Positions 1 to 285 of a stretch of DNA of 285 bases are shown piece by piece. Made by a program: the position numbers and the translations under genes. This DNA comes from a phage: sequence record AF419419.1, one strand, 5' to 3'. A model generated the notes under the pieces. The model did not search any database and was not told the origin of the DNA. It saw only the letters and a program-made list of their open reading frames with translations. Position 1 is the stretch's first letter, and each line of letters starts with the position of its first letter.

Positions 1-285
1 ATGGCTATGTCTAACATGACTTACAACAACGTTTTCGACCACGCTTACGAAATGCTGAAAGAAAACATCCGTTATGATAACATCCGTGACACTGATGACC
101 TGCACGATGCTATTCACATGGCTGCCGATAATGCAGTTCCGCACTACTACGCTGACATCTTTAGCGTAATGGCAAGTGAGGGCATTGATCTTGAGTTCGA
201 AGACTCTGGTCTGATGTCTGACACCAAGGACGTAATCCGCATCCTGCAAGTGCGTATCTATGAGCAATTAACGATTGATCTCTGG
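1..285 (+). CDS. ocr: Ocr anti-restriction protein (T7 gene 0.3 product; DNA mimic that inhibits type I restriction-modification enzymes); 3'-partial, first 95 codons, CDS continues beyond the window
   Basis: Seen in sequence: ATG at 1-3 and an uninterrupted frame-1 ORF to position 285; frame 2 stops at 17-19 (TGA) and frame 3 at 11-13 (TAA); the minus strand is interrupted by multiple stops. The translation matches the N-terminal ~95 residues of T7 Ocr as I recall them ([25 protein letters not shown]...IDLW). Composition is strongly acidic (13 Asp + 6 Glu versus 2 Lys + 4 Arg in 95 residues), as expected for a DNA-phosphate mimic. Codon usage (CGT, CTG, GAC, AAC) fits a highly expressed early coliphage gene. 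No alignment was run. Confidence 0.95.

Follow-up and report, generated by a model that had tools for sequence, protein, structure and literature searches.

The first 95 codons of T7 gene 0.3

The stretch of DNA analyzed here (the window) comprises 285 nucleotides and is open throughout in frame 1 of its plus strand. The frame begins with the ATG at 1-3, reaches the TGG at 283-285 without meeting a stop codon, and specifies 95 residues. In the other frames of both strands, the longest open reading frame does not exceed 31 amino acids. The window gave no match in Rfam at E <= 1, and no sigma-70-like promoter or intrinsic-terminator pattern was detected within it. Nothing besides ocr is encoded in the window. 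The early promoters of T7, A1-A3, are located at 498, 626, and 750, upstream of the coding sequence at 925-1278 (V01146). The features of the window and its differences from T7 are collected in Table 1.

The origin of the reading frame was evident at the level of DNA. When compared by megablast with 50,697 phage records, the window was aligned over its whole length and with no gaps to T7 (98.2% identity, 280 of 285 nucleotides, E = 2e-139), and the best matches among phage genomes were all T7, at the same 98.2%. The matching segment is the start of the T7 coding sequence that is annotated in V01146 as "gene 0.3, inhibits EcoB and EcoK host restriction". At the level of protein, the translation was identical at 92 of its 95 positions to residues 1-95 of the Ocr chains in the structures 1S7Z and 2Y7C (E = 5e-58). 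It also matched the Pfam family PF08684 ("DNA mimic ocr") with 192.2 bits, where the cut-off is 25 bits (E = 2.3e-57, profile positions 1-93 of 101). The translation is strongly acidic in composition, with 19 Asp and Glu against six Lys and Arg in 95 residues and a pI of 4.23; the same residues of wild-type T7 Ocr include 20 acidic and six basic ones.

The fold of the translated protein was predicted with AlphaFold2 from 31 homologues, a method that is insensitive to point mutations. The model has a mean pLDDT of 79.9 and four helices (8-26, 31-45, 50-60, and 78-94). A Foldseek search of the PDB returned Ocr chains as the best eight matches (E <= 5e-8, query-normalized TM-scores of 0.67-0.77), and the first match other than Ocr had an E-value of 0.8. 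The matched Ocr structures include complexes with a type I methyltransferase, BREX BrxX/PglX, PARIS AriA, and RNA polymerase. As the model was made from a sequence nearly identical to that of Ocr, the fold comparison is a weakly independent test. The hydrophobic residues of the dimer interface, F54, A58, and L82 (counting Met1), are all present in the window. The window and T7 Ocr (V01146 925-1278; 1S7Z; PF08684) are co-linear from the start codon and have in common the predicted four-helix fold, the acidity, and these three interface residues, whereas the window differs in carrying D27N, P73S, A84V, and two silent changes.

The window is codons 1-95 of the 117-codon T7 gene 0.3 (ocr). The initial annotation had recognized T7 Ocr in the translation, and this identification was borne out by the DNA, protein, profile, and fold matches. 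Its estimate that about 80% of the gene is covered from the 5' end agrees with the 285 of 354 nucleotides found (80.5%), and the near-identity that it predicted over all 95 residues was observed from residue 1 onward, with five nucleotides and three amino acids differing. It had also described the sequence as a known counter-defence gene and not a novel system; the gene is T7 ocr itself. The designation "T7-type" was too broad. The natural relatives of T7 differ from it by 19-40 nucleotides over this stretch and the window by only five, and therefore the backbone is that of T7 itself. An unrelated acidic protein, or an open reading frame that arose by chance, would be the alternative to ocr. 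This reading is contradicted by the matches to T7 DNA, to Ocr protein, to PF08684, and to the Ocr fold, and it is ruled out by the 98.2% nucleotide identity to T7 gene 0.3.

The remainder of the gene lies beyond the window and consists of the last 22 codons, which encode the acidic C-terminal tail (residues 96-117), and the stop codon. The window opens exactly at the ATG and closes in frame after codon 95, with neither a ribosome-binding site, nor upstream promoters, nor any flanking sequence. The initial annotation had taken the DNA around it to belong to the early (left-end) region of a T7-like podovirus or to a construct derived from such a genome. Such ends suit an excerpt of a coding sequence, an amplicon, or a clone as well as they suit a fragment of a genome, and the boundary of a record, of an amplicon, or of a gene call is the simplest explanation for them. 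The end at codon 95 was also considered as the edge of a deletion that recurs in the early region of T7. This was rejected, as the recurrent 0.3-0.7 deletion has its junction at T7 position 1,253 (PMC8923235). The sequence around T7 1209/1210 recurs downstream only as 7-mers at chance level, and no repeat meaningful for a deletion was found there. Within the window, the sole repeat is a direct repeat of 12 nucleotides at 61-72 (GAAAACATCCGT) and 76-87 (GATAACATCCGT). The substitution G79A raises the identity of its two copies from 10 of 12 in wild-type T7 to 11 of 12, which is probably a coincidence.

Table 1. Features of the 285-nucleotide window and positions at which it differs from T7.
Feature	Position	Strand	Reference
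Partial CDS, codons 1-95 of gene 0.3 (ocr)	1..285	+	T7 925-1209, PF08684, 1S7Z
ATG start codon of gene 0.3 (T7 position 925); first bases of the window	1..3	+	
G>A, GAC>AAC, D27N (D26N in mature numbering)	79	+	versus T7
F54 codon, dimer interface and AriA contact, unchanged	160..162	+	PMC9122126 (role)
C>T, GAC>GAT, silent at D63; in 8-mer ATTGACCT, makes GATC at 187-190	189	+	versus T7
C>T, CCT>TCT, P73S, loop before helix 4	217	+	versus T7
L82 codon, dimer interface and AriA contact, unchanged	244..246	+	PMC10802264 (role)
C>T, GCG>GTG, A84V, helix 4, two residues from dimer-interface L82	251	+	versus T7
C>T, GAC>GAT, silent at D93; in second copy of ATTGACCT, makes GATC at 277-280	279	+	versus T7

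Five substitutions and the natural diversity of ocr

The window is distinguished from T7 by five substitutions, and every one of them is G:C>A:T. Three are missense and two are silent. While the initial annotation was correct in naming T7 Ocr, it had overlooked the five changes, three of which are missense, that make this a mutant allele. All three missense changes are located at positions that are conserved among 120 homologues. Position 27 is D in 95 of the 120 and N in three, position 73 is P in 111 and S in four, and position 84 is A in 114 and V in four. Each of the three variant residues is therefore present singly in three or four homologues; N27, S73, and V84 occur together in none of the 120. 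At the end of helix 1, D27N removes one of the carboxylates that mimic DNA phosphates.

Several regularities in the placement of the changes were observed. The silent changes C189T and C279T affect the same base in the only two copies of ATTGACCT in the stretch (184-191 and 274-281). Each of them adds a GATC site (Dam/MboI), a sequence that is absent from the first 8,000 nucleotides of wild-type T7. Among the four C>T changes, three occurred at [C]CT (the changed base in brackets), a class to which five of the 71 cytosines belong.

The allele matches nothing in the collections that were searched. Among phage genomes, megablast and tblastn returned nothing closer than wild-type T7, and the window had no match whatever in plasmids or in complete E. 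coli genomes. Exact patterns specific for the variant, which carried the changes at 79, 217, 251, or 279, gave zero matches in viral, metagenome, and genome contig collections. The exact protein of the window was likewise absent from the protein collection. Among 5.8 billion proteins, the nearest representative of a 90% identity cluster is 96% identical to the translation and lacks all three substitutions.

Natural variation of the gene was assessed over the same 285 nucleotides in 16 natural relatives from IMG/VR, in addition to the T7 genome itself. The 16 relatives differ from T7 at 19-40 nucleotides. About 70% of their differences are transitions, and neither direction is preferred, with GC>AT making up 137 of the 388 differences (35%); approximately 73% are silent. 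At four of the five sites that are changed in the window, the T7 base is kept by all 16 relatives, the exception being position 189. Under the spectrum of the natural relatives, the probability that five of five differences would be GC>AT is approximately 0.005. The Ocr homologues of Teseptimavirus and other Studiervirinae (for example, those of phiA1122, Serratia phage Pila, and IME390) belong to the same family and to the same length class of 113-123 amino acids. Their protein identity is 87-94%, and their divergence is balanced and mostly silent, unlike that of the window.

These data bear on the possibility that the allele comes from an unsampled wild near-relative of T7, in which case its five differences would be polymorphisms of natural origin. 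In favor of this, the sampling of phage diversity in public collections is incomplete, T is found at position 189 in two of the 16 natural relatives, and N27, S73, and V84 are each present in a few natural Ocr homologues. Yet no homologue joins all three residues, and even the nearest relatives are much further from T7 than the window is. The direction of the changes is also at odds with natural divergence, with GC>AT accounting for 100% of the differences in the window and silent changes for 40%, compared with the 35% and approximately 73% given above. In addition, three of the five changes occurred in AG[G], a context favored in the mutagenised T7 lineages that are described below. A wild origin is therefore considered improbable.

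The comparison with deposited relatives also brought up several peculiarities of annotation. In MZ375235, MZ375236, OL964750, and MH779619, the ocr coding sequence is labelled "protein kinase", "receptor binding protein kinase", or "hypothetical protein". These labels in T7-type genomes look like errors of annotation transfer, probably from the adjoining gene 0.7. The Ocr homologue of Yersinia phage phiA1122 is annotated with 140 amino acids, exceeding the others by about 20 residues, and has a second Pfam hit (PF27024) in addition to PF08684. The extra length may come from a start that was called further upstream or from an extension of the N-terminus.

Comparison with mutagenised T7 lineages

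A strong excess of G:C>A:T changes on a T7 backbone is also found in the deposited T7 isolates K, K115, P, and P82 (AY264775-AY264778; K is AY264775, K115 is AY264776, and P is AY264777). These isolates are taken to be mutagen-propagated lineages from the work of Bull and Hillis (Bull et al. 2003 J Mol Evol 57:241, as cited in PMC8923235). The assignment of K and P to nitrosoguanidine treatment rests on the titles of the GenBank records, the mutational spectrum, and secondary citations. Substitutions in K and P were counted against the accompanying wild type (AY264774) by a BLAST-based comparison of whole genomes. Isolate P carries 305 substitutions (7.8/kb) and isolate K carries 413 (10.6/kb), and in both isolates 94% of them are GC>AT. 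The mutated G is preceded by a purine in 84% of cases in P and in 80% of cases in K, where the background is 51%. AGG is the top context in both isolates, with 18% in P and 15% in K against a background of 6.7%. GC>AT changes have been reported to dominate after the treatment of T7 with nitrosoguanidine or hydroxylamine (PMC6042481), and the nonsense mutations that became fixed in T7 grown in nitrosoguanidine were all GC>AT (PMC5850294).

The window resembles these isolates in its T7 backbone and in the G:C>A:T type of its changes. Three of its five changes are located at AG[G], which reads [C]CT on the plus strand, and the other two follow a pyrimidine; the direction agrees with the context preference of K and P, but this count is to be read as n = 5, with a context that was chosen post hoc. 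In isolate K, the local density of mutations is the same. Its copy of these 285 nucleotides also shows exactly five GC>AT changes, of which three are missense and two are silent, and all of them are at sites other than those of the window. Five changes per 285 nucleotides exceed the genome-wide means of K (2.9) and P (2.2), and only 7-18% of the 285-nucleotide windows in P and K reach five. There are 134 possible GC>AT changes in the stretch, and 59% of them are missense. In the window, three of five are missense, and the allele therefore fits unselected (neutral) drift.

A direct relationship to the sequenced isolates was considered. None of the sites changed in the window is shared with K or P in gene 0.3, and kinship with K/K115 and P/P82 was rejected, as they have no mutations in common with the window. 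The lack of shared sites excludes close kinship with K or P and leaves room for an independent lineage. The window would thus be, at most, an independent lineage of such an experiment. Between K and P themselves, 24 substituted positions are common genome-wide, none of which is in gene 0.3. These could be due to shared ancestry within the experiment, to parallel mutation at hot spots, or to differences between the stocks and the reference. Gaps in the early region are seen in the annotation of two laboratory genomes. In T7_220S (MZ375276), the kinase gene comes immediately after gene 0.3, and in K115 (AY264776), gene 1 comes immediately after gene 0.4. Together, these gaps illustrate that the early region is dispensable in the laboratory.

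From these comparisons, we infer that the window probably originated in a T7 lineage that was passaged in the laboratory in the presence of an alkylating (nitrosoguanidine-type) mutagen, or in a clone or amplicon made from such a lineage. In a mutagen-grown T7 line, the non-essential gene 0.3 would have drifted in the absence of selection. A set of only five mutations does not discriminate between nitrosoguanidine and other sources of the changes, namely hydroxylamine, EMS, the deamination of cytosine by an enzyme, or rare variation in nature.

Could the changes instead have arisen outside the phage? Cytosine deamination, or the diversification of a cloned ocr fragment in vitro or in vivo, would give an allele whose mutations were not inherited from a phage. 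Such changes might be produced by a deaminase-based hypermutator, by mutagenic PCR, by damaged template DNA, or as an artefact of sequencing. In favor of such a process, C>T accounts for four of the five changes when these are read on the coding strand. The window also starts at the ATG, ends in frame, and has no flanks, in the manner of a cloned or amplified fragment of a coding sequence, and it had no match in any of the genome or phage collections searched. However, one of the changes is G>A on the coding strand, and therefore the bias is not strictly strand-specific. On the strand that bears the mutated G, the AG[G] context is the one that is enriched in T7 mutagenised by alkylation. Error-prone PCR normally gives changes at A:T pairs and transversions too, and neither it nor random sequencing error is expected to yield purely G:C>A:T changes. 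Taken together, an origin in a manipulated fragment is unlikely, and inheritance from a mutagen-grown T7 lineage is the preferred account of the allele.

Activity of the variant Ocr and significance of the allele

Ocr is the first T7 protein made after infection. It is a helical and very acidic homodimer that imitates approximately 24 bp of bent B-form DNA through its shape and its carboxylates. Other partners of Ocr are bacterial RNA polymerase and BrxX/PglX, the methyltransferase of BREX, and the PARIS abortive-infection system senses Ocr through its component AriA. By imitating bent B-DNA, the Ocr homodimer occupies the groove in which type I restriction-modification enzymes bind DNA (PMC3439906, PMC2806950, PMC2647291). 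The inhibition of BREX and the triggering of PARIS by Ocr have likewise been described (PMC9122126, PMC10802264). Structures of Ocr in complex with its partners are available for a type I methyltransferase (7EEW, 2Y7C), for BREX BrxX/PglX (9EX7, 8Q56, 8ZEK), and for PARIS AriA (8V45). The functional background given in the initial annotation, which named type I restriction-modification, BREX, and PARIS, is in agreement with these PDB complexes and with the two reports on BREX and PARIS (PMC9122126, PMC10802264).

Engineered variants of Ocr provide a guide to the activity of the allele. The variants Mut1, Mut2, and D12N/D26N (Roberts et al. 2012, PMC3439906) are active and contain D26N in mature numbering, which is the D27N change of the window. 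Mut1 and Mut2 were shown to block EcoKI cleavage in vitro as the wild type does (PMC3439906). In these variants, Asp and Glu were replaced with Asn and Gln by design and in blocks, and the table of variants has neither P73S nor A84V nor the silent pair of the window. The engineered set also includes Ocr99 and Ocr109, and Ocr99, a C-terminal deletion, was shown to behave as wild type (PMC3439906). The Ocr99 truncation is near the end of the window at mature residue 94, and the part of the protein that the window encodes is therefore close to a minimal active unit.

The mutant Ocr has probably retained its activity as a mimic of DNA, as the residues of the dimer interface are intact and D26N is tolerated in the published mutants. 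The residues N27, S73, and V84 are each found in natural homologues of Ocr.

Whether the missense changes were selected was also considered. Selection, whether in nature or in a directed experiment, might have favored D27N, P73S, and A84V for altered recognition by an Ocr-sensing defence such as PARIS AriA, or for a shift of the target range between type I restriction-modification, BREX, and RNA polymerase, with the mimicry of DNA being kept. In favor of this, the missense changes, three out of five, fall at conserved positions, and A84V is two residues away from L82, the mutation of which was shown to escape PARIS (PMC10802264). Against this, the known escape residues F54 and L82 are unaltered, and the PARIS-escape changes F54V and L82R are thus absent from the allele. 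The proportion of missense changes is also the neutral expectation for GC>AT mutations in this stretch (59%), and the same ratio of three to two was found there in isolate K, which evolved in the absence of such selection. A selected allele is accordingly regarded as very unlikely, and unselected mutation in a laboratory lineage is retained as the explanation for the missense changes.

Considered as a whole, the window is very probably explained as T7 ocr with a five-change allele that is likely to have originated in a mutagenised line and that probably encodes a working mimic. The gene and its family are already known, the allele is a trivial variant, and nothing points to a new function. The biological weight of the sequence is small, as Ocr is a textbook example of a DNA-mimic counter-defence protein and the window adds neither a system nor a mechanism. 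The window is better classed as a T7 laboratory-derived sequence than as an environmental phage or as a novel acidic protein. The signature of the allele, G:C>A:T changes with a bias toward AG[G], illustrates that mutagenised laboratory material among deposited sequences can be recognized by its mutational spectrum alone. If the variant protein is functional, Ocr tolerates the loss of a surface carboxylate (D27N) together with changes at conserved positions (P73S and A84V). Such tolerance, if true, would fit the published robustness of Ocr as a mimic of DNA.
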